This document shows positions 14,070 through 24,461 of a stretch of DNA of 64,000 nucleotides, one piece after another (position 1 is the first letter of the stretch; the number at the start of each line of letters is the position of its first letter). The stretch covers positions 46,186-110,185 of the forward strand of contig JANQRG010000020.1 in NCBI GenBank assembly GCA_028284665.1, read 5' to 3'. A program made the position numbers and the translations under genes. The notes under the pieces are model-generated. The model made no database searches, was not told the origin of the DNA, and saw nothing but the letters and a program-made list of their open reading frames with translations. The stretch comes from Croceivirga sp. (lineage in GTDB: Bacteria > Bacteroidota > Bacteroidia > Flavobacteriales > Flavobacteriaceae).

Positions 14070-15851
14070 TTAAGGGGAATAATCAATTAGCTTTCTTCTA
14101 TAGGCGGTAAGTAATTTGGATTTAGAAATAAACCCGGCATATTTTCCGTCTTTGATAACGGGAAGATTCCAGGCACCACTATCCTGAAATTTTTGCATTA
14201 CCCGCTGCATGGAATCCGATTCCTGGAAAATGTGCTCCGGAGGGGCATGCATAAAGTCGCGAACAAACATAGTGTTATAACGGGTAGCATCAAACATAAA
14301 CTCCCGTATGTCATCCAAAACAATAATACCGACCATTTTTTTCTCTTCATCAAGCACAGGGAACAGATTACGGGTTGATTTTGAAACCGATTGGTATAAT
14401 AGCTCGCCAAGTGTCATATCAGGGGATACGGGGCTAAAATCCGTTTCAATGATCTTATCCATTTGCATCAAAGTAAGCACCGCCTGGTCCTTATTGTGCG
14501 TTAAAAGGGCACCCTGTTCCGCCAGCTTTTTGGTATAGATGGTGTAATCCAATACGTTCTTAGTGATGAGGTAGGAGATAGAGGCGGTGATCATTAAGGG
14601 AACAAAAAGTTGGTAACCTCCTGTAATTTCAGCAATAAGAAAAATAGCGGTTAGGGGGGCGTGGATAACCCCGGCAATTAGCCCTGCCATACCAATAAGG
14701 GTAAAGTTACTCTCATTCACCTCAAATCCGAACCCAAGATTATTTATAAGTTTAGCCACAACATTTCCGAGTGCACTGCCCATAACCATTGTGGGAATAA
14801 AAACACCTCCCGCACCCCCTGCGGCAAAAGTAGTTGTCATAGCAATGGCTTTAAAAAGCGTAATGCCAAACAATAAAGCAATGATCACCCATACATTGTC
14901 CATGTATCGATCAAATGGGGTTGTCCCCAGAGCTGCAGCGGTATTGCCGTCCAATAAATTGTTGATGAAGCCAAAACCCTCCCCGTAAAGAGGTGGAATA
15001 AAATAGAGCATAATGCCTATAGCGATTCCGCCTACAAGCAGTTTGTATTTGGGGCTTTTGAAAGGCTTAAAAAGGCGTTGTATAGCAAAATACATTTTGG
15101 TAAAATACACGGACGCCATACCCGTTCCCAGACCTAGCAGTACATAAAACAGGGTGTCTTTTAAAAGAAATCCTTCCGACAACGAAAAACTGAACAAATT
15201 CTCGTTGCCCAGAAAAAAATAGGAGGTAAGCACTCCTGAGATCGAGGCCAGGAGCAAAGGCAGCACAGAGAGCATGGTGAGATCCAGACTGAACACCTCA
15301 ACGGCAAAAACGATAGCGGCTATGGGCGATTGGAAAATGGAAGCGATAGCCCCTGCAGAAGCGCAGGCAATCAGTAAAGACCGGGTTTTGGAATCGATGT
15401 GAAACAACTTACTGAGGTTGGAACTCACAGCAGCTCCGGACTCTACCGCCGGACCCAGGAGCCCCACGGAACCTCCAAATCCAACGGTTAATGGAGCTGC
15501 AATAAGTGGTGTATATATCTTTTTGATGTCCAACATCCCCTTGTTTTTGGATAAAGAGAACATTATGGAGGAAATACCATGCCCCAGTGGATGTTTGTGG
15601 ATATACTTTACGTAGAGGTAGACCAAAGTCAGTCCAATTACGGGCAAAATAAAATACAATTGGTTTTCAGAAAAAACAATTCCTGCTTCCAGTAGGGCTT
15701 CAATGAAATAGGTCGTATTTTTTAAGGTTACCGCGACAAGACCCGCTAAAAAACCGATCAGTATACTCATTAGGTGCACAAAAGTCTTGTTGGAGATATT
15801 TTTATATCGCCATTTCAGGAATCTTTTAAGCAGGATTTTGGTTTTAGACAC
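14070..15851 (-). CDS. Voltage-gated chloride channel (ClC) protein with C-terminal CBS pair
   Basis: The motifs GFGGSVGLLGP, GAGGVFIP (GxFxP) and GVIHAPLTA are ClC signatures. They are followed by two CBS-like repeats, for a total of 593 aa. Confidence 0.9.
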   Translation of the reverse strand: MSKTKILLKRFLKWRYKNISNKTFVHLMSILIGFLAGLVAVTLKNTTYFIEALLEAGIVFSENQLYFILPVIGLTLVYLYVKYIHKHPLGHGISSIMFSLSKNKGMLDIKKIYTPLIAAPLTVGFGGSVGLLGPAVESGAAVSSNLSKLFHIDSKTRSLLIACASAGAIASIFQSPIAAIVFAVEVFSLDLTMLSVLPLLLASISGVLTSYFFLGNENLFSFSLSEGFLLKDTLFYVLLGLGTGMASVYFTKMYFAIQRLFKPFKSPKYKLLVGGIAIGIMLYFIPPLYGEGFGFINNLLDGNTAAALGTTPFDRYMDNVWVIIALLFGITLFKAIAMTTTFAAGGAGGVFIPTMVMGSALGNVVAKLINNLGFGFEVNESNFTLIGMAGLIAGVIHAPLTAIFLIAEITGGYQLFVPLMITASISYLITKNVLDYTIYTKKLAEQGALLTHNKDQAVLTLMQMDKIIETDFSPVSPDMTLGELLYQSVSKSTRNLFPVLDEEKKMVGIIVLDDIREFMFDATRYNTMFVRDFMHAPPEHIFQESDSMQRVMQKFQDSGAWNLPVIKDGKYAGFISKSKLLTAYRRKLIDYSP

Positions 15852-15877
15852 TCCTCAGCTGAGTTTAAAACTCAAAA

Positions 15878-16699
15878 TTAAGGCAATAGCAAAGATTTTA
15901 ATGCTGTGATATCCGATAAATAGATTTGATAGGGCATTTCCACATAATTGTGAGAAAGTCGTAGTTGGTTTTTATAATCAGTTTCCGCTTCCTCTATTAA
16001 TTTCAGCGCTTCATTCCTTTTACCATTGGCGAGCAAACACTTAGCCCAGTAGTAGTTGGCTTCTGCGGAATATTTAAAATGCTCCTTTATTTTTTCAAAG
16101 TCAGCAATGGCTTTTTGAAACTCACCCTGTTCATAAAAAGCGATTCCTCTATATAAAAAAGCTTCAAGCTCCACCCAGTCTTCACCGGTTTCCTTGGTTT
16201 CGTGTTGAATGTGTTTATCCCAATAGTAAATGGAGGTCTCATATTCTTTTAGCCCTAAATAAGCAATACCCCTCCAATAGTCCACGCTATGCCCTTGTGG
16301 ATGATCGATGTAAGACGTAAGCGTATCAGAAGCATTAAAATCTGCAATGGCTTTTTTATAATCGCGATAGAAGAGAAGATAGAGGTAGCCGCGAATAGGG
16401 ACCCATGTCTGTGGGTCATATTTTACAGCTTTATCAAACTTTGGTTTCCACTCGTGAGGCATCCCACGCTTTAGAAAGGGGATAGAGATTTCCCTTAAGG
16501 CATCGTCATGTGTTGAATCGACAAAAATGACTTTTTTAAGGAGTGCTTGACTCTCTTTTGATCCTTGGAGTAGTTTTTTGTCGAGATTGAAAATGGAATC
16601 TGCAGCTTTTGTGCGATTTGCTATTTCCGTAGCTTCTTGCGCATTGCAGGAAGCAACTAAAACCACCAGGCTAAGGAAGTATATCCACCACTTTTCCAT
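15878..16699 (-). CDS. TPR-repeat lipoprotein
   Basis: It has a lipoprotein signal (LVVLVASC). Repeated W/Y...G.A......A...F blocks such as YWRGIAYLGLKEYETSI and LYRGIAFYEQGEFQKAIADF are TPR-like. Confidence 0.7.
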   Translation of the reverse strand: MEKWWIYFLSLVVLVASCNAQEATEIANRTKAADSIFNLDKKLLQGSKESQALLKKVIFVDSTHDDALREISIPFLKRGMPHEWKPKFDKAVKYDPQTWVPIRGYLYLLFYRDYKKAIADFNASDTLTSYIDHPQGHSVDYWRGIAYLGLKEYETSIYYWDKHIQHETKETGEDWVELEAFLYRGIAFYEQGEFQKAIADFEKIKEHFKYSAEANYYWAKCLLANGKRNEALKLIEEAETDYKNQLRLSHNYVEMPYQIYLSDITALKSLLLP

Positions 16700-17189
16700 T
16701 TTCTATCCTAAAAATTAGATACATATAATAGTCCAATGGCTTTTCAATGAGATTGAAATTCCAATTGTCTTTTCGGAACGAGAGTGCTTTCAATTGATCA
16801 ACCAGGAGATCATTCAAATCAATTTTTTCGAAATCACGATTTAATTCATTCACTTCCACATCTCCAATTTCCCCATTGCAATTAATGATGAAACGTAAGT
16901 TGAGCATCCCGTTATCATCAAAATTGTTCTCATTGAAATTCGCATAAATGAATTTTCGGAATTTTCCTTTGTTTTCCTTGTAGATAGCAGGGGTTGAACT
17001 GCTGTAAAAACCAAAAGGAAGACCAGGGCTACAGCGCTTAAAACCTTTGGAATAGTCCGGGTTGCTTGGTGAAAGAAAGCCTACTTGATCTTCATAGTTA
17101 TAATCACTTAGTTTCTGTTGTGCTTCTGCAGGGAACAAACTCCCTATGGACAAAAAATAGCTAAGAAAGATGTTAACGTTCATTTGCAT
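16671..17189 (-). CDS. Hypothetical exported protein
   Basis: The start is moved to ATG 17189 (MQMNVNIFLSYFLSIGSLFPAEAQ), which gives a signal peptide. The C-terminal part (NLRFIINCNGEIGDVEV) faintly resembles a TonB-C-like fold. I cannot make a firm family call. Confidence 0.5.
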   Translation of the reverse strand: MQMNVNIFLSYFLSIGSLFPAEAQQKLSDYNYEDQVGFLSPSNPDYSKGFKRCSPGLPFGFYSSSTPAIYKENKGKFRKFIYANFNENNFDDNGMLNLRFIINCNGEIGDVEVNELNRDFEKIDLNDLLVDQLKALSFRKDNWNFNLIEKPLDYYMYLIFRIENGKVVDILP

Positions 17190-17529
17190 TGATAGAGCAG
17201 TATCACAGTTAATCGACAGATTTAGTTTCCGGAATTCTTTGAACAAGGGCGCTTAATCCCCTACTATACCCGCCAACGGTAAAAGTATCTAAAAATTCGC
17301 TTTTCGAAGGGAGTCCTTCAGAAAAGGATGACGTGAAAATCCTGGAGATTTTAAGGTTTCCCGTAGTTAATGTTCCGTAGAATACCCTACTTTGAACGCG
17401 TCTTTAAACCAAAGGCATCTCCCCCTTTTTTGTAGTACAATTCTTGTGAAATACACATCAATGGGTATAGCGCGATGCTGCCTGTTTGTAGAATTTGAAA
17501 AATAGAATAACTAACCCAATTCATCAATT

Positions 17530-18465
17530 ATGAAGAAGAGTATTCTCTTAGTAATGGTAAAGATAATGGTCGCATGCTCCAACGATAATGGTCAGGGTCT
17601 GACTGAAGGTATTGGCAGTATTCCACTTGAACTACGAGACACCACTAATTTTAGCTATTTTTTACCAGGTACCGGCACCTTTGAGTTTCAGCAGAATTCA
17701 GTTAGGTCTACACAGGTGAATACCATTGAAACTAAGGTTCGAATTAAGAATAAGGAATCCGACTCCGAACCAGTCAGCTTCGAATTGTTTTTGTTTAAGA
17801 ATGCCAACTTTTCTGGGGCCAATTTGGACTTTGCGGCGGAAGCTAGCATTCCCAAGCAAGAAGAAGGTTATGTACTTCTATTTTCTAATGGTACGATCAA
17901 AATGGCCAACCACAATTTTCATCTTGCTCGATTTTCAGAAGAAGAAACCAGTACAAGTGGTAAATACTCGGGTACAGTTCGGGTTTTCTCTATTGATGGG
18001 GCCGAAAATGGAGATGGACAAGATGACTCAACAGATGGTAATGATGATGGGTCCGGTGAAGGTGGTTCTGAAGAGACTGATGATGAAACCGGGGACAACC
18101 CTCAGGATGGGGAAGAAGAAAATGGAGAAGAAAACACCGACGAATCCTTGGATGAAGATGAGGAAGGGCAGGAAGAACAAACCGCCTCTGAAACTACGCT
18201 TGACATTTTTAATGTTATTGGAAATATTGACGTAGACAACAACCTTTTTCTGCTTAGTACGAAAGAGGGCGCTGAATTTAATACGCTTTCAGGGGTGTTA
18301 CTAACCACGTCTAATCCTGAGTTTGCAGGAAACTTTGATAAAGATTCTTCAAAAAGCCTAACGGGTACCTTTCAAACATCAGCAGAAGAAGTTGTAATAC
18401 AACTATCCGTTGACGAAAATGGCGAAAGCAAAAACCTAACTATTGAACTAAATAAAAATAACTAG
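17530..18465 (+). CDS. Hypothetical lipoprotein with central polyacidic linker
   Basis: The lipobox-type N-terminus is MKKSILLVMVKIMVAC. Two beta-rich halves are separated by a roughly 65-aa D/E/G/N tract (residues about 157-221). I recognise no family. Confidence 0.7.
   Translation: MKKSILLVMVKIMVACSNDNGQGLTEGIGSIPLELRDTTNFSYFLPGTGTFEFQQNSVRSTQVNTIETKVRIKNKESDSEPVSFELFLFKNANFSGANLDFAAEASIPKQEEGYVLLFSNGTIKMANHNFHLARFSEEETSTSGKYSGTVRVFSIDGAENGDGQDDSTDGNDDGSGEGGSEETDDETGDNPQDGEEENGEENTDESLDEDEEGQEEQTASETTLDIFNVIGNIDVDNNLFLLSTKEGAEFNTLSGVLLTTSNPEFAGNFDKDSSKSLTGTFQTSAEEVVIQLSVDENGESKNLTIELNKNN
17998..18192 (+). repeat. Purine-rich imperfect GAN/GGN coding repeat encoding a polyacidic tract
   Basis: This DNA stretch is almost entirely GAW/GGW/GAR codons and translates as GAENGDGQDDSTDGNDDGSGEGGSEETDDETGDNPQDGEEENGEENTDESLDEDEEGQEEQ. 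Confidence 0.8.
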
Positions 18466-18467
18466 TC

Positions 18468-21400
18468 ATGAAAAATTTAGTTTTCAGTTATATCCTATTA
18501 TTCTTAGGGATCCACATTTTCTACGGTCAAAAAAAGGAAATAAAGGCTGTAGAAATCAATAAAGAATCTAAGCTCACTATCAAGGCAGATGCTTATTCCG
18601 TAAATAATGTCACCATTACGGTTACCCCTACGTCAAGCAGTGAAGGAAAAAACACGCAGTTAGAAGTCCCTTTTGAGTTTAAAGTCGCCCCGTTTAATGA
18701 AAAAATGTTCAGTGATAAGTTGTTGGAGGTATTGACCACTATAGAAAAGTATCAAACCGATAACAAACGATTGGATTCACTGTTAAAGGAGATCAAGGGT
18801 ACTTCCAAGACAGATAAAAAAGTGAAAGAGCTTGCAGAACTCTATGAAAGCATTAACAAAGTATTTTCTGAAGATCAGAAAAATCAGGTTTTTGCAAGCA
18901 AAGAACCATCAATTGAAAATATCAAAGAGAAATTGCCTATCGTAGAGAAGAAGGATGAGAACGGTAATGTGAAAAAAGATGACAATGACAACATAATTGA
19001 GATCATTGATGTAAAAAAAATAGAGCCTGAACTAAAAAAGAATTTAATCATAATACTTGAAGAAATCGCCAAAAACAGATTTCAAGAATTACTCGACCCA
19101 AACCTTCATAATGCCCTATACTTAACAAGAACTGGCAAGGGCGAAAAATACTACACGAATAAAACCAAGGTCAATGAACGTTTAGATGCACTTTTTAGAT
19201 ATTTTGATAGTCAGATCATTTTGATTTTTGCTTATGATACCGAGCCTGTTGCTGGTACTTTGTACTACAATAAAAAAGTAGAGGGGATACAGTATTTTAC
19301 GGATAGGAGTTATGAACTCTATTTTAATAATAAAGTACGTAACTACCACAAACTAATAAAAAGGCTACACACGGAACGCAGAGATTTTTTTTACAACAGA
19401 AAACTAAAGGATAAAGGAAATGAAGAAGGTCAAGCCATCGATAATCAAAACGGCACAAACAAAAAATCGGATAAAGCTTCAGTAAAGAAAAAAAACCTTA
19501 ATTATATAATTGAAAATCATAGGAAGGAACTTACAAATTATTATGCTCGAAAAGATTCCATTGCCAAAGTGGTAAATGCCAAAATAGAGGAGATTCGATA
19601 CAATCTTTCAACGGAGAGATACTTTGAGAAGGTCGAAAGGGTTTTGGAGAATTATTTAGAAGCCGAAGATGATGCGTTAGTCCCAGATTATCATAAGGGG
19701 ATTACAGTAAATGAAGCAGAAAAACTTTTGGAGAATACCAATTGGATAAACAATAGTAAAATGGATTTGGAGGGGAGGCTTAAATCGGAAAGTGATACTT
19801 CTAAGATGGACAGTTTGAAAAGACAACTGAAATTTAAAAATAATATTTTGACGGTTTTTTCACAATCTCAGACCGAAGCTGAAAAATGTAAAAACCTAAT
19901 AATTGACGGTATATTAAAACGTCAGACCGATAAACTCGAAGATGGTTTGAGAAGTGATACCTTAAGAACACTTCAATATTTTGAAATACTAAATTTCTTC
20001 ACCAAAAATCGTAAGGAATACAAGTCCAAATACATTTATAATCCAAAAGCATTTTATGATCGTTTTAAAGATCTTTCTTACCAATTTCGTGCTTTGAATA
20101 GGAACAAACGGAAGCAATTTATTTATGATAAAGTACTGAGACATCGAAACAAGCAAGTTTATGATAGTATCGGTAAATACTTGCCAGATTATGATAAAAG
20201 CAGAAAAAAGGTTAAAGAAATAACACTTTTAAGGGAGTATTTAGGGATAAAACGCAATCTATTTGAAAAAATAGATGAGTACACCCAACTACATTGGACG
20301 AATTATTTTTACAACCAAAAGAAGGAATGGAGGGATGCTAATAATAAGCGTAATTTTTGGGATAAAGCTGAATATATTAGAGATAATTATGATAGTATTT
20401 TTCCTTTGATGGATTGGGATCTAGACAAAAAAAAGAATTATAGACGAAGCGATAAATTGATTAGTGAAATCTCAAGTCTTGAAAACGAAATACTTGAATT
20501 GAATAGAAAGTACCGTACTCAGATTATCACGGATACTTATGATGAAGAGTTAGTTGCTAATATTGAGAATTTGGATGAAAGAGCACTCGCCGGAGTTTAC
20601 AACTTTATTTCAGATTCCCAATATAATTTTTTTGAAGGTGAAGAAAAAAAGCTTCAAAAAAGTAGGGATTCTCTTGGTAACAGAATAAACCAAATTGAGG
20701 ATAAAATGCAAAAGCATCTTAAAAATGGTCCCTTATGGAATGCTGAGGCCAATCTAATTGAACTAGACTTTAACGAAGGGTTTGCCGAACGTATTTTGAT
20801 GTATGCCAAGATTACGGAATTAGCCCCAGTGGATGAGGAAAGTCGACGTATTAATAAACGACTAAAAACAATACTGGATGAAAAAAATAATGGGAGTAAA
20901 GGGAATGAATGGGAAACCAATATTGGAAAAAATTTGACACTTAAAAGCCTTTTTCCATATGGATTTAGTTCTTCTAAGGATTATGATGATTTTAAAGAGT
21001 ATAAATTGGCTGTATACAAAGGGAGGCATCGAGAATTCGAAGTTAGGCTAGATTCAATATTTCCCAATTACGTGCAAAAATTGGAGAATAACCGCTTTGA
21101 TTTTAGCCCCAAAAATGAAGCGATTACTATGGGTCCTGAAAATATGGAGAAGGAAAAGAACAATTCTCGGGAGCTTAAAAAAGATACCAGTTCCAAACTC
21201 TTTAACCTTAGTGTTTATACGGATTTTAAGGGTTTTGAAGATAACCCGAATGGGTTGATGCAATTTGAATTCTCGAAGCTTATCCCCTTATACACCAAAA
21301 GAAAACCGAGTCTGTTTGGGCAACGTTATATAGACCGAGGGTTTAACTTCGGAAGGTTCAATTACATCATTCCTCAATTGCGTTGGGCACGTTTAGATGC

Positions 21401-22007
21401 TGGTGATGATGATGAGAATTTGGTGCTATCTTTTCAAACCGTTTTTGAAGGAGGTGAAGAATCCCAGCTGCCATTCGTAACTATCCTCGATTTGTTGCGT
21501 TTTGAGAATGTCTCTGTCGGAGCAGATTTAAACCTGTTAATGTTCGATTTGCCCACTAGCAAATTACGTTTTGAACTTAATGTAGGGGGGCGTTTTGGAA
21601 GAACAAAGGTATTGCAGGGAAATCAGCAAAATACAGATACTACAGATAATGTGACCATACCATCATTTGACACCAACAATTGGCGGTTTTACCCTGAATT
21701 TTTAACTCGATTAAGACCAGAAGAGCGTTATGGTGCCAGTCTTAGTCTAAGGCCTGTACGTTTTGATGCCAATACTACAGATTTTTCCGTTGTAAGTTCG
21801 GAAACCGAGTTTAGGGAAAATCTTCAAGATGATCCAAAATGGTTGCACCAAATAGAGTTTAATGCTTTTTTCTCACCTACTGGTCGAAGGGAAAATAGAT
21901 TCTTTTTTAGATATCGCTACACTAATACATCAGATTGGGCAACCAATGGCTTTAGCGAATGGCAGTTAGGGTATGCACTTACTTTTAGGGTACAGAACAA
22001 GGAGTAA
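18468..22007 (+). CDS. Hypothetical 1179-aa exported protein (K/E/N-rich helical centre, beta-barrel-like C-terminus)
   Basis: It is one uninterrupted 3.5-kb ORF that starts 2 nt after the lipoprotein gene. It has a signal peptide (MKNLVFSYILLFLGIHIFYGQ). The last roughly 250 aa show alternating-hydrophobic strand patterns. I found no catalytic motif. Confidence 0.75.
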   Translation: MKNLVFSYILLFLGIHIFYGQKKEIKAVEINKESKLTIKADAYSVNNVTITVTPTSSSEGKNTQLEVPFEFKVAPFNEKMFSDKLLEVLTTIEKYQTDNKRLDSLLKEIKGTSKTDKKVKELAELYESINKVFSEDQKNQVFASKEPSIENIKEKLPIVEKKDENGNVKKDDNDNIIEIIDVKKIEPELKKNLIIILEEIAKNRFQELLDPNLHNALYLTRTGKGEKYYTNKTKVNERLDALFRYFDSQIILIFAYDTEPVAGTLYYNKKVEGIQYFTDRSYELYFNNKVRNYHKLIKRLHTERRDFFYNRKLKDKGNEEGQAIDNQNGTNKKSDKASVKKKNLNYIIENHRKELTNYYARKDSIAKVVNAKIEEIRYNLSTERYFEKVERVLENYLEAEDDALVPDYHKGITVNEAEKLLENTNWINNSKMDLEGRLKSESDTSKMDSLKRQLKFKNNILTVFSQSQTEAEKCKNLIIDGILKRQTDKLEDGLRSDTLRTLQYFEILNFFTKNRKEYKSKYIYNPKAFYDRFKDLSYQFRALNRNKRKQFIYDKVLRHRNKQVYDSIGKYLPDYDKSRKKVKEITLLREYLGIKRNLFEKIDEYTQLHWTNYFYNQKKEWRDANNKRNFWDKAEYIRDNYDSIFPLMDWDLDKKKNYRRSDKLISEISSLENEILELNRKYRTQIITDTYDEELVANIENLDERALAGVYNFISDSQYNFFEGEEKKLQKSRDSLGNRINQIEDKMQKHLKNGPLWNAEANLIELDFNEGFAERILMYAKITELAPVDEESRRINKRLKTILDEKNNGSKGNEWETNIGKNLTLKSLFPYGFSSSKDYDDFKEYKLAVYKGRHREFEVRLDSIFPNYVQKLENNRFDFSPKNEAITMGPENMEKEKNNSRELKKDTSSKLFNLSVYTDFKGFEDNPNGLMQFEFSKLIPLYTKRKPSLFGQRYIDRGFNFGRFNYIIPQLRWARLDAGDDDENLVLSFQTVFEGGEESQLPFVTILDLLRFENVSVGADLNLLMFDLPTSKLRFELNVGGRFGRTKVLQGNQQNTDTTDNVTIPSFDTNNWRFYPEFLTRLRPEERYGASLSLRPVRFDANTTDFSVVSSETEFRENLQDDPKWLHQIEFNAFFSPTGRRENRFFFRYRYTNTSDWATNGFSEWQLGYALTFRVQNKE

Positions 22008-22010
22008 TAG

Positions 22011-23756
22011 TTATCTAACTTTAAGCCCCAACTCATCCAGTTGATCTTGGTCAATGGTTGCCGGAGCATCAATCATCACATCCCTACCGCTATTGTTTTT
22101 AGGGAAGGCGATAAAATCCCGAATGGTTTCCTGCCCGCCCAAAATAGCGACTAGTCGATCCAAACCAAAGGCTATCCCACCATGGGGAGGGGCTCCGTAT
22201 TGGAAGGCCTCCATCAAAAAGCCAAATTGTGCCTTTGCTTCCTCTGCGGTAAAACCAAGATGCTTGAACATAATGGCCTGGATTTCTTTGTCATGGATAC
22301 GAATAGAGCCCCCGCCAATTTCGTTCCCGTTTAGCACTAAATCATAGGCATTGGCACGCACCGCTCCCGGATCGGAATCCAGGAGGTCCAATTGCCCGGG
22401 CTTGGGAGAAGTAAACGGATGGTGCATCGCATGGTAATGGCCGGTTTCCTCATCCAATTCCAACAACGGAAAATCGACCACCCATAGGGGGGCAAATTCA
22501 TCAGGTTTTCGTAATCCGAGACGTTCCCCTAGTTCCATCCGCAGGGCACTGAGTTGGGCGCGTGTTTTGTTCGTTTCTCCTGAAAGCACGAGAATCAAGT
22601 CTCCCGCTTCTGCCCGGGTCAATTCGGCCCATTTGGCCAAATCTTCCTGCTCATAAAATTTATCTACCGAGGATTTAAAGGAACCATCTTCGTTACATTT
22701 TACATAGACCATTCCTTTGGCACCTACCTGCGGGCGTTTTACCCAGTCGGTTAAAGCATCTATCTCTTTACGGGTAAACGTAGCCGCTCCGGGAACGGCG
22801 ATACCCACTACCAATTCGGCCGAATTGAACACATTGAACTCCCGATGTTGGGCTACCGCATTTAGCTCCCCAAACTCCATTTTGAAACGGATATCCGGCT
22901 TATCGTTGCCATAGCGTTGCATGGCCTCGTCATAGGTCATTCGAGGGAAATCCGTTGGCTCTACCCCTTTGATCTCCTTAAGCAGATGTTTCGTCAACCC
23001 TTCAAAAGTTGTTAAAACATCTTCCTGTTCTACAAAGGCCATTTCACAGTCGATCTGGGTGAACTCCGGCTGCCTGTCCGCTCTGAGATCTTCATCCCGA
23101 AAACACTTCACGATTTGGAAATATTTGTCCAATCCTCCAACCATCAATAATTGTTTAAAGGTCTGGGGAGATTGGGGAAGTGCATAGAACTGCCCTTCAT
23201 TCATTCGGCTAGGTACCAAAAAGTCACGGGCGCCTTCCGGAGTGGATTTGATCAGATATGGTGTTTCAACTTCAATGAACCCCTGCCCTGAAAGATACTT
23301 TCGTACTTCCATGGTTACCTTGTGCCTAAAGACAAGGTTGTTTTTGATCGGTGTCCTTCTGATATCCAGATACCGGTATTTCATACGGAGGTCATCACCA
23401 CCGTCAGTTTCATCTTCAATGGTGAACGGAGGGAGCATTGCTTCGTTTAAGATGACAAGCTTTTGTACCAATACTTCTATGTCTCCGGTGGCCATATTTG
23501 GGTTTTTCGAGGCCCGTTCGATTACGGTTCCCGAAACCTGGATAACGGTCTCCCTTCCTATTCCTCTGGCTTGCTCCAATACTTGTTTCGGAGTACGCTC
23601 TTCGTCAAAAACCAGTTGTGTAATTCCATATCTGTCTCGTAAGTCTATCCAGACAACAAAGCCTTTATCCCGAATTTTGGCTACCCAGCCAGATAAAACA
23701 ACATTTTTTTCTGTATAAGAAGCATTTAATTCGCCACAGGTATTGGTTCTGTACAT
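22011..23756 (-). CDS. aspS: Aspartate--tRNA ligase
   Basis: It has an OB-fold N-terminus (V.LSGWV...R..G...F..LRD..G) and the class II motifs [16 protein letters not shown] and [13 protein letters not shown]. The protein is 581 aa. Confidence 0.95.
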
Positions 23757-24391: not shown

Positions 24392-24407
24392 CACCTTCGA
24401 AAACAAA

Positions 24408-24446
24408 GAAAAAGCCCTGGCATGAACATGCCAGGGCTTTTTTTAT
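24408..24446. terminator. Bidirectional intrinsic terminator
   Basis: GAAAAAGCCCTGGCATGaaCATGCCAGGGCTTTTTTT forms a stem of about 12 bp, flanked by an A-run and a T-run. It lies between the convergent MORN gene and the RND operon. Confidence 0.85.
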
Positions 24447-24461
24447 GCAGTCTTTATGTAG

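Follow-up and report, generated by a model that had tools for sequence, protein, structure and literature searches.

SusC/SusD and BtuB/BtuG form stable complexes between a β-barrel and a surface lipoprotein. In systems of the PgaA, BcsC, PelB and AlgE type, a helical periplasmic scaffold of TPR repeats is fused to a barrel of 16–18 strands and works with a lipoprotein helper, and the operon encodes a glycosyltransferase or synthase. In the Slam proteins of type 11 secretion, a helical periplasmic domain at the N-terminus is joined to a barrel at the C-terminus, and for about 52% of these proteins the neighbouring gene encodes a lipoprotein that they export (PMC5449769). How the surface lipoproteins of Bacteroidota cross the outer membrane (OM) was not known as of 2016 (PMC5080379). 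Here we describe a two-gene cassette from Croceivirga sp. (Flavobacteriaceae) that encodes a lipoprotein and a predicted OM barrel protein of 1179 amino acids (aa). The cassette lies at positions 17530 to 22007 of a 64,000-nucleotide stretch of DNA, referred to below as the window (GenBank assembly GCA_028284665.1, contig JANQRG010000020.1, positions 46,186 to 110,185 of the forward strand); all coordinates of the cassette and its neighbours are counted from the first letter of the window. The two genes belong to a sizeable and previously unannotated family, in which the products probably act together at the OM.

The lipoprotein gene (17530..18465, plus strand) encodes 311 aa and is supported by homologues (P0005–P0007) and by a 14-member alignment of partner proteins. 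Its N-terminus reads MKKSILLVMVKIMVAC|S, with the signal peptide and lipobox (MVAC, Cys16) at 17530..17577 on the plus strand, followed by S-N-D-N-G. The 1179-aa protein, for which we use the name giant, is encoded at 18468..22007 on the same strand, begins with MKNLVFSYILLFLGIHIFYGQ, and has full-length homologues that include P0002, P0003, the giant of locus L004 and P0008–P0022, among others. The junction between the two genes is TAG-TC-ATG, and with a stop-to-start gap of 2 nt the giant is probably translationally coupled to the lipoprotein gene. The stop codon of the giant is separated by 3 nt from the convergent aspS gene (22011..23756, minus strand), which is identified by Pfam matches to the tRNA-synt_2, GAD and anticodon domains. 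An earlier sequence-only reading of this DNA had reported an open reading frame (ORF) with a lipobox-type N-terminus ending at 18465, a signal-peptide-bearing ORF starting 2 nt later, and an end of the pair 3 nt from the aspS stop; each of these observations was borne out when the sequence was read again. Neither gene is a chance ORF, as homologues keep their order and spacing across many contigs.

The sequence-only reading also found no recognisable signature in either protein, and this was upheld by searches of Pfam, NCBIfam, PHROGs, PADLOC and the sequences of the PDB, all of which were empty for both proteins. The giant from the window had no Pfam match at E≤1, nine diverse relatives had none at E≤0.01, and there was no NCBIfam match; this set of the window protein and nine relatives is the scope of the Pfam negatives given below for the giant. 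Searches of the curated libraries with nine giants (Pfam, NCBIfam) and 14 partners (Pfam) returned noise only, such as Spectrin at 18.5 bits, an SMC-related family at 19 bits and single weak viral matches. Nor was there a real match to the PDB by sequence, either for the single protein or for family profiles including the partner profile; ribosomal protein L3 (E ~0.08) and a designed coiled coil were judged to be noise. Thus no characterised family was matched in the searches made with either protein.

A different result was obtained for the claim that the two genes are ORFans. A word-indexed search of 5.8 billion protein clusters did recover just two relatives of the giant, one from Flagellimonas nanhaiensis with 46% identity and one marine metagenome protein with 36%, as well as three relatives of the lipoprotein. 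Identity over the last ~430 aa of the giant was 58–67%, as compared to 36–46% by BLASTP over the whole protein, and a profile of these last 430 aa was used for an exhaustive HMMER search of 1.84 billion representatives. This profile matched 597 clusters (50% identity) at E≤1e-3, 482 at E≤1e-10 and 163 at E≤1e-30, and in nearly all of the 597 the matched domain was located at the extreme C-terminus of a protein of 800–1000 aa. Named members are all annotated as hypothetical proteins and come from Bacteroidota (Flagellimonas, Zunongwangia, Sungkyunkwania and metagenome-assembled genomes). The word index missed most of the family, a 22-sequence profile returning only 4 proteins; it also missed the 1215-aa giant of L004, which adjoins a small-protein match that the index did return. 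The ORFan impression is therefore due to the insufficient sensitivity of word-indexed searches: the C-terminal 430 aa of the giant define at least 597 clusters, and distant relatives of the lipoprotein are encoded at the matching place. By the evidence of the profile searches this is a real, sizeable and unannotated Bacteroidota family, for which ELDFNEGF, FPYGFSxKxDY, RxDFSPKN, RPEERYG, FFFRYRY and EPxAGxL serve as diagnostic motifs. A scan with patterns specific to the close clade gave one of 185,579 species representatives, F. nanhaiensis, the patterns being too narrow to report on phyletic spread.

From its N- to its C-terminus, the giant consists of a Sec signal peptide, a conserved module, a long and variable region that is basic, a conserved neck of approximately 160 aa and a barrel. 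We modelled the C-terminal 430 aa with AlphaFold2 (AF2) from a 112-sequence alignment. The resulting model (m86f049fcc3a2) had a mean predicted local distance difference test score (pLDDT) of 90.2 and a predicted template modelling score (pTM) of 0.86, with values mostly of 86–96 in the neck. The neck (aa 750–910; 20715..21197, plus strand) is predicted to contain a long β-hairpin (ELDFNEGF), a 20-residue helix and a small α/β unit (FPYGFSSSKDYDDF, RxDFSPKN), and its columns are the most highly conserved in the family. The barrel region (aa 911–1179; 21198..22004, plus strand) contains approximately 12 long antiparallel strands between aa 913 and 1172 as assigned by DSSP, four of which are 15–17 residues in length; the count would be 14 if the neck hairpin joins the wall. 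A loop at aa 1050–1065 is variable, the last strand reads ...WQLGYALTFRV, and a terminal F is found in many relatives. The 24 residues that precede strand 1 (aa 889–912) are modelled as coil rather than helix.

When the model was compared with the PDB by Foldseek, all 50 of the matches listed were OM barrels, among them DcaP (E = 4e-5), OmpT/Pla, FapF, NanC, and the β-domains of BrkA and invasin. Among these listed matches the template modelling (TM) scores were at most 0.44 when normalised to the target and 0.15–0.28 when normalised to the query, and the root-mean-square deviation (r.m.s.d.) was at least 10.9 Å throughout. Because Foldseek returned OM barrels only, the fold class of the predicted structure is clear: the modelled C-terminus of the giant is an OM β-barrel, one that matches no known barrel family. 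The general expectation for an OM barrel, a Sec signal peptide together with at least 12 long antiparallel C-terminal strands, is likewise found in the prediction. The sequence-only reading had overlooked the barrel.

The N-terminal portion of the giant is divided between a conserved tip and a variable remainder. The signal peptide (aa 1–21, ...FYG|Q; 18468..18530, plus strand) ends in [AGS]Q in 106 of 117 complete family members. It is followed by the conserved N-terminal module (18537..19298, plus strand), which was delimited by invariant alignment columns and the family consensus and is made up of β-rich segments at aa 24–76 and the motif YFDSQIILIFAYDTEPVAGTLYY...GIQYF at aa 245–277; within the clade of the window protein a helical insertion separates the two. 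The motif P.AG.[LIVMF], which reads EPVAGTL in the window, was present in 93 of the 117 complete proteins and in none of 117 shuffled controls, at a median position of 137 in the family as compared to 260 in the window protein. Beyond the module lies the basic, low-GC 'stalk' (aa 278–749; 19299..20714, plus strand), the least conserved part of the giant. The region that precedes the neck and barrel varies from 140 to 819 aa in the 117 complete members (median 465), so that the window protein, with 752 aa, stands at the long extreme. A full-length AF2 model based on three sequences had a pLDDT of 32.5, and at this low confidence residues ~78–750 were predicted to be almost all helix. The composition of aa 22–749 includes 1.6% Pro and 2.7% Gly, with an isoelectric point (pI) of 9.06 and a net charge of +16.5, and, with the low-confidence model, suggests that the variable region is probably α-helical. 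No internal repeats were found in the N-terminal region by self-comparison. A crude heptad scan gave four overlapping windows that merge into three stretches (aa 77–116, 555–588 and 655–687), heptad-patterned windows making up 4.1% of the total in the N-terminal region as compared to 1.0% in shuffled sequences.

The lipoprotein partner is a smaller and acidic protein. All 14 partners have the lipobox Cys, and the alignment contains a single other invariant column, a Gly. The partner family profile had no match in Pfam or the PDB; the alternating sequence pattern gives the lipoprotein the look of an all-β protein. The mature lipoprotein of the window has a pI of 4.05 and a net charge of −45. 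A D/E/G-rich insert lies between its two halves (aa 157–222; 17998..18195, plus strand), with 45.5% D+E, no K or R and a net charge of −30. The sequence-only reading was right that an acidic linker is present, as the composition confirms; the data do not support this linker as a defining feature, nor cation binding, which that reading had named as one possibility, as the core role. The insert is found in just 2 of the 14 partners, those of the window and L004, whereas in the other 12 a short loop takes its place. Without it the protein is approximately 250 aa in size, the distant partners being 248–274 aa. From the alignment the polyacidic insert is a lineage-specific insertion that would not be part of the core function, and a cation-binding complex as that function was rejected on the same count.

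The residues that follow the lipobox Cys bear on where the lipoprotein may be located. In the experimentally defined lipoprotein export signal (LES) of Bacteroidota, the residues are K-(D/E)2 in Capnocytophaga (optimally C-X-K-(D/E)2-X), SDDDD in B. fragilis and SDDFE in F. johnsoniae (PMC5080379); in general terms, within positions +2 to +6 after the Cys a positive or polar residue precedes at least two acidic ones. Other partners in the family have CKDDF, CKDNF, CKDPFNDDF, CTDFFKDDF and CQNDNDLE, which resemble an LES more closely than the sequence of the window does. All 11 partners examined are acidic (pI 4.05–5.2) and 10 of the 11 cognate giants have neutral to basic N-terminal regions; the two insert-bearing partners belong to the two giants whose N-terminal regions are the longest of all and rank among the most basic. 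This complementarity of charge between the two sequences is suggestive only.

We examined the linkage of the two genes in the contigs that carry family members, and found a lipoprotein gene upstream of the barrel gene and on the same strand in 16 of 21 informative distinct loci. The two genes were directly adjacent in 15 of these, with an intergenic gap of −4 to +10 nt in all but one. Every contig of the close clade that shows the DNA in question has a small-protein homologue directly upstream of the giant homologue; the clade is represented by F. nanhaiensis (L001), L002, L004 (plus three near-identical contigs), L008, L009 and Zunongwangia atlantica (L012), the last of which has a partner that matches with E = 2e-22. 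The partner profile in addition recovered three partners on which it had not been trained, with 80 bits (L015), 119.5 bits (L028) and 37.7 bits (L029). The pair is found in at least eight different neighbourhoods: between the ClC and aspS genes in the window; with extracytoplasmic function (ECF) sigma factor, FecR and TonB receptor genes and defence-like genes in Zunongwangia; between queuosine synthase and 5-enolpyruvylshikimate-3-phosphate (EPSP) synthase genes in Sungkyunkwania multivorans; by an aminotransferase gene, a GerE regulator gene and ABC-F/TonB receptor genes in distant members; by holin and amidase genes in L014; and around a PG_binding_1 gene in L015. The sequence-only reading had proposed that occurrence of the genes independently of each other would count against a dedicated cell-envelope module. 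In the main family the genes are not independent, being linked in most loci across varied neighbourhoods and over deep divergence, and the module is further supported by the invariant lipobox Cys and the predicted OM barrel.

Several of these loci show peculiarities of their own. The sole interrupted pair is that of L015/L016 (1115–6239), where a 389-aa PG_binding_1 gene (E = 5.6e-9) stands between the lipoprotein and barrel genes. In L014 (3877–8985), a GTA-type holin gene and an endolysin-like Amidase_2/SH3 gene are found directly upstream of the pair, tightly spaced and on the same strand, and a gene for a DUF1353 protein comes after it. This arrangement resembles a lysis cassette and was seen once; a spanin-like reading of holin, amidase, lipoprotein and giant was rejected, since it concerns one locus and the protein sizes and the barrel do not fit. 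In L012 (3705–7910) the barrel protein is divided over two ORFs (460 and 635 aa), the second of which NCBI labels 'partial'. The cause could be a frameshift, an assembly problem or a pseudogene; WYL, PDDEXK_4 and type I restriction-like genes adjoin this locus.

Taken together, we consider it probable that the OM barrel and the lipoprotein form a physical complex. What the complex does is a more tentative matter. The explanation that we prefer, by analogy with type 11 secretion, is that of a mobile two-gene OM complex in which a stalked barrel docks or exports its own surface lipoprotein, and we rate this at somewhat less than an even chance. According to this model both proteins would be made from one transcript, the barrel being inserted by the β-barrel assembly machinery (BAM), and the lipoprotein would be acylated, carried to the OM and flipped to the cell surface, consistent with the LES-like residues after its Cys. 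There it would stay bound to the barrel or the neck of its partner, so that the barrel protein would serve as a dedicated dock, possibly a translocon, for that one lipoprotein. The helical N-terminal region would act as a periplasmic scaffold whose conserved tip contacts a conserved envelope component, and the polyacidic insert would be a lineage-specific decoration of the surface. Since the N-terminal tip is conserved, a periplasmic contact fits better than a variable adhesin tip. This mechanism of a dock or translocon with a periplasmic stalk is, as a part of the proposal, offered with a little more reserve than the whole. In its strongest form, the family would be a Bacteroidota counterpart of type 11 secretion, a self-contained and horizontally mobile system: periplasmic recognition of the cognate lipoprotein, by either the N-terminal module or the neck of the barrel protein, would be followed by translocation of the lipoprotein to the surface. 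This we regard as unlikely.

A number of observations weigh against the docking and export model. The five loci that have no lipoprotein gene encode the shortest and most divergent barrel proteins (565–818 aa), and the barrel can therefore exist without the lipoprotein. Since a general route for the export of LES lipoproteins already exists in Bacteroidota, there is no obvious need for a private translocon. The lipoprotein of the window itself is a partial and weak match to an LES: in CSNDNG, positions +2 to +6 contain a single acidic residue. The argument from charge is weak because many exported proteins are acidic. As to the resemblance to Slam, no DUF560 or TPR match was found in the giant or the nine relatives, and the predicted barrel is nearer to 12 strands than to the 14 predicted for Slam. 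Finally, the periplasmic side of the membrane is proposed for the N-terminal region of the giant, the first 750 aa of which are modelled at low confidence.

The features that suggest a stalked barrel could also be accommodated by an envelope tether or stalked porin, in which the OM barrel is joined through a periplasm-spanning helical stalk to an N-terminal module that binds peptidoglycan or an inner-membrane or periplasmic structure, and the lipoprotein caps or stabilises the barrel. The layout of signal peptide, conserved tip, helical region and barrel is that expected of such a protein, and is shared by OmpM, with its SLH tip, coiled-coil stalk and 16-strand barrel (PMC10628300). DcaP, a porin that bears a coiled coil, gave the best Foldseek E-value, the tip module is conserved family-wide, and peptidoglycan-related genes interrupt or adjoin the pair in two loci (PG_binding_1 in L015, Amidase_2/SH3 in L014). 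However, our Pfam searches found no SLH, OmpA_C, LysM, PG_binding or other wall-binding domain in the giant, heptad-patterned stretches are few, and the six-fold variation in stalk length (140–819 aa) is hard to square with a periplasm of fixed width. A sporadic accessory family, found by close-clade patterns in one of 185,579 species representatives and encoded by genes with the lowest third-position GC of the window, is also unlike a core tether, and the model gives no specific role to a lipoprotein that bears a surface signal. We consider a tether rather unlikely. Somewhat more doubtful again is an autotransporter-like fibril, in which the ~12-strand barrel and an autochaperone-like neck would export the N-terminal 750 aa as a charged helical surface fibre (an adhesin, a spacer, or a shield against phages or grazers) with the lipoprotein as a surface accessory subunit. 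It would account for a large N-terminal region ahead of a C-terminal barrel of autotransporter size (~270 aa), for the passenger-like region being the fastest-evolving and most length-variable part of the protein, and for the surface-export-like residues of the lipoprotein; the 24-residue coil at aa 889–912 could thread the pore, and 12-strand barrels that transport polypeptides are among those with the better target-normalised TM scores (BrkA 0.42, FapF 0.42, invasin 0.39). On the other hand, all of the TM scores are below 0.45, and the r.m.s.d. for the BrkA, FapF and invasin barrels is 13–15.5 Å. The Pfam searches gave no match to the Autotransporter β-domain (PF03797) or to a passenger family, the model shows no α-helical linker directly before the barrel, and the distal N-terminal module shows family-wide conservation, whereas adhesin heads usually vary. 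A cognate lipoprotein, moreover, is not a requirement of known type V systems.

With its long helical N-terminal region and C-terminal barrel next to a lipoprotein partner, the pair agrees as well with the layout of export pores for polymers or other substrates, such as PgaA/PgaB, BcsC, PelB/PelC and AlgK/AlgE, the remainder of the pathway then being encoded elsewhere, and AlgE was among the weak Foldseek matches. The AlgE matches are of low probability, with TM scores of 0.16–0.21, no TPR or other repeats were found, and ~12–14 strands would make a small pore for a polymer. No glycosyltransferase or synthase gene was located beside the pair in any context examined, and we judge an export pore to be very improbable.

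The DNA on the 5' side of the cassette is conserved. The divergent intergenic region at 17270..17529 aligns with L004, L008, L002, L009 and, in part, L001 at a mean column identity of 63%, and in the close clade this conservation is independent of which minus-strand neighbour is present. The region presumably serves both directions, with a promoter and 5' leader for the cassette and a promoter for a minus-strand operon of the genes for a 191-aa protein, a TPR protein and ClC. Within it, alignments delimit a small hairpin or palindrome on the plus strand (17400..17416), GTCTTT-AAACC-AAAGGC, followed by CATCTCCCCC(T)n; the equivalent in L001 is GTTCTC-ATTTC-GAGAGC, in which pairing is retained through three compensatory pair changes. 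A structured RNA that spans the whole 5' region was rejected, as this region matched nothing in Rfam and its folding energy showed no excess (z = 0.17), and what remains is the small covarying hairpin. The approximately 340 nt of upstream non-coding DNA given by the sequence-only reading depends on the start of the 191-aa ORF: the gap is 340 nt to the internal Met (MQMNVNIF..., window 17189) and 283 nt to the mechanical TTG start. The internal Met, which would begin a signal peptide, is probably the correct start, based on comparison with the 159-aa homologue in L004.

The genes for the TPR protein (273 aa) and the unannotated 191-aa secreted protein are located between ClC and the cassette (window 15878–17246, minus strand). 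In L004 (12898–14173) the equivalent pair sits on the aspS side of the giant, between these two genes, and L001 and L002 lack it; its different position in the window and in L004 indicates movement of a second small unit around this spot. The ClC/CBS channel gene (window 14070–16699, minus strand) begins 26 nt downstream of the stop of the TPR gene, and due to this short distance it is probable that, in this genome, the 191-aa, TPR and ClC genes are on one transcript that starts in the shared divergent promoter region. On the other side of the cassette, a near-perfect 21-nt inverted repeat with T-runs on both sides (window 24404–24447) lies between the gene for a 122-aa protein and that for a resistance-nodulation-division (RND) pump. 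By its sequence it looks like a bidirectional terminator, which explains the sub-threshold Rfam matches nearby (Thr_leader, His_leader, GibS and others).

We also examined the cassette for signs of its origin. The GC content at third codon positions (GC3) of the two genes is 0.33–0.35, the lowest of 28 long ORFs in the window (mean 0.436, standard deviation 0.046), so the low GC of the cassette is not solely an effect of amino-acid composition. Two other long ORFs of the window have similarly low GC3 (0.34 and 0.348). No repeats bracket the cassette and no tRNA gene is nearby. The family was absent from viral contigs and from phage and plasmid records, and the PHROGs and PADLOC searches were empty, for which reasons a phage, plasmid or defence-system gene was rejected. 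The low GC3, the lack of scars and the presence of the pair at different loci in different genera, taken together, fit an accessory two-gene unit that moves horizontally, and also fit an insertion in this lineage that was not recent enough to leave scars. The sequence-only reading had described the cassette as wedged between housekeeping genes and possibly an insertion: the low GC3 and the other loci elsewhere are in accord with this, and a visible scar is not among the evidence for it.

These results have some general implications. Profile searches turned an apparent pair of ORFans into a large family, indicating that ORFan calls from word-indexed or BLAST-level searches can hide such families and are unreliable for compositionally biased proteins. 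The barrel model, domain boundaries, motifs and partner described here suffice to seed a Pfam or NCBIfam entry, by which 'hypothetical protein' could be replaced with a structural description. A compact mobile pair of lipoprotein and barrel would also provide a tractable model for barrel-assisted display of lipoproteins, and a Bacteroidota counterpart of type 11 secretion, if true, would be a new family of OM secretion or assembly systems having no sequence relation to DUF560.

Comparison with the known systems places the pair close to several of them in layout. SusC/SusD and BtuB/BtuG are likewise found in Bacteroidota, and share with the pair a gene for an OM barrel beside that for a lipoprotein with LES-like residues (LES as defined in PMC5080379), the two products presumably forming a stable complex at the surface. 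In the pair the lipoprotein gene comes first, the barrel is far below 22 strands, and there is a long N-terminal extension; Pfam searches of the giant, nine relatives and the partner gave no TonB box, plug, TonB-dependent-receptor or SusD match. OmpM of Negativicutes, SlpA of Deinococcus and DcaP of Acinetobacter share with the giant the order of signal peptide, N-terminal tip, helical stalk and C-terminal barrel (PMC10628300). The giant differs from them in having no wall-binding domain and a mostly non-heptad stalk, and its TM score to DcaP is 0.18–0.22; these proteins are abundant core components of the envelope with no cognate lipoprotein gene, unlike the pair. The autotransporters of types Va and Ve, as well as FapF, resemble the giant in their C-terminal barrel of ~12 strands and ~270 aa, large N-terminal region and conserved segment ahead of the barrel. 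The giant is unlike them in its passenger, predicted to be helical and basic rather than a β-helix, in its lipoprotein partner, and in TM scores below the level of a shared fold family. With Slam (type 11, DUF560, Proteobacteria) the family has in common a two-gene module with an adjacent lipobox gene (~52% for Slam, PMC5449769; 16 of 21 loci here) and a sporadic, accessory distribution. Differences from Slam are the lack of a DUF560 or TPR match, the occurrence in Bacteroidota, a much longer non-TPR N-terminal region, and a barrel of probably ~12 strands as compared to the 14 predicted for Slam. By its sequence the system falls outside the DUF560, TPR, Autotransporter, SLH, TonB-dependent receptor/SusD and exopolysaccharide (EPS) porin families, and in its predicted organization it would work like the known pairings of a stalked barrel with a lipoprotein.

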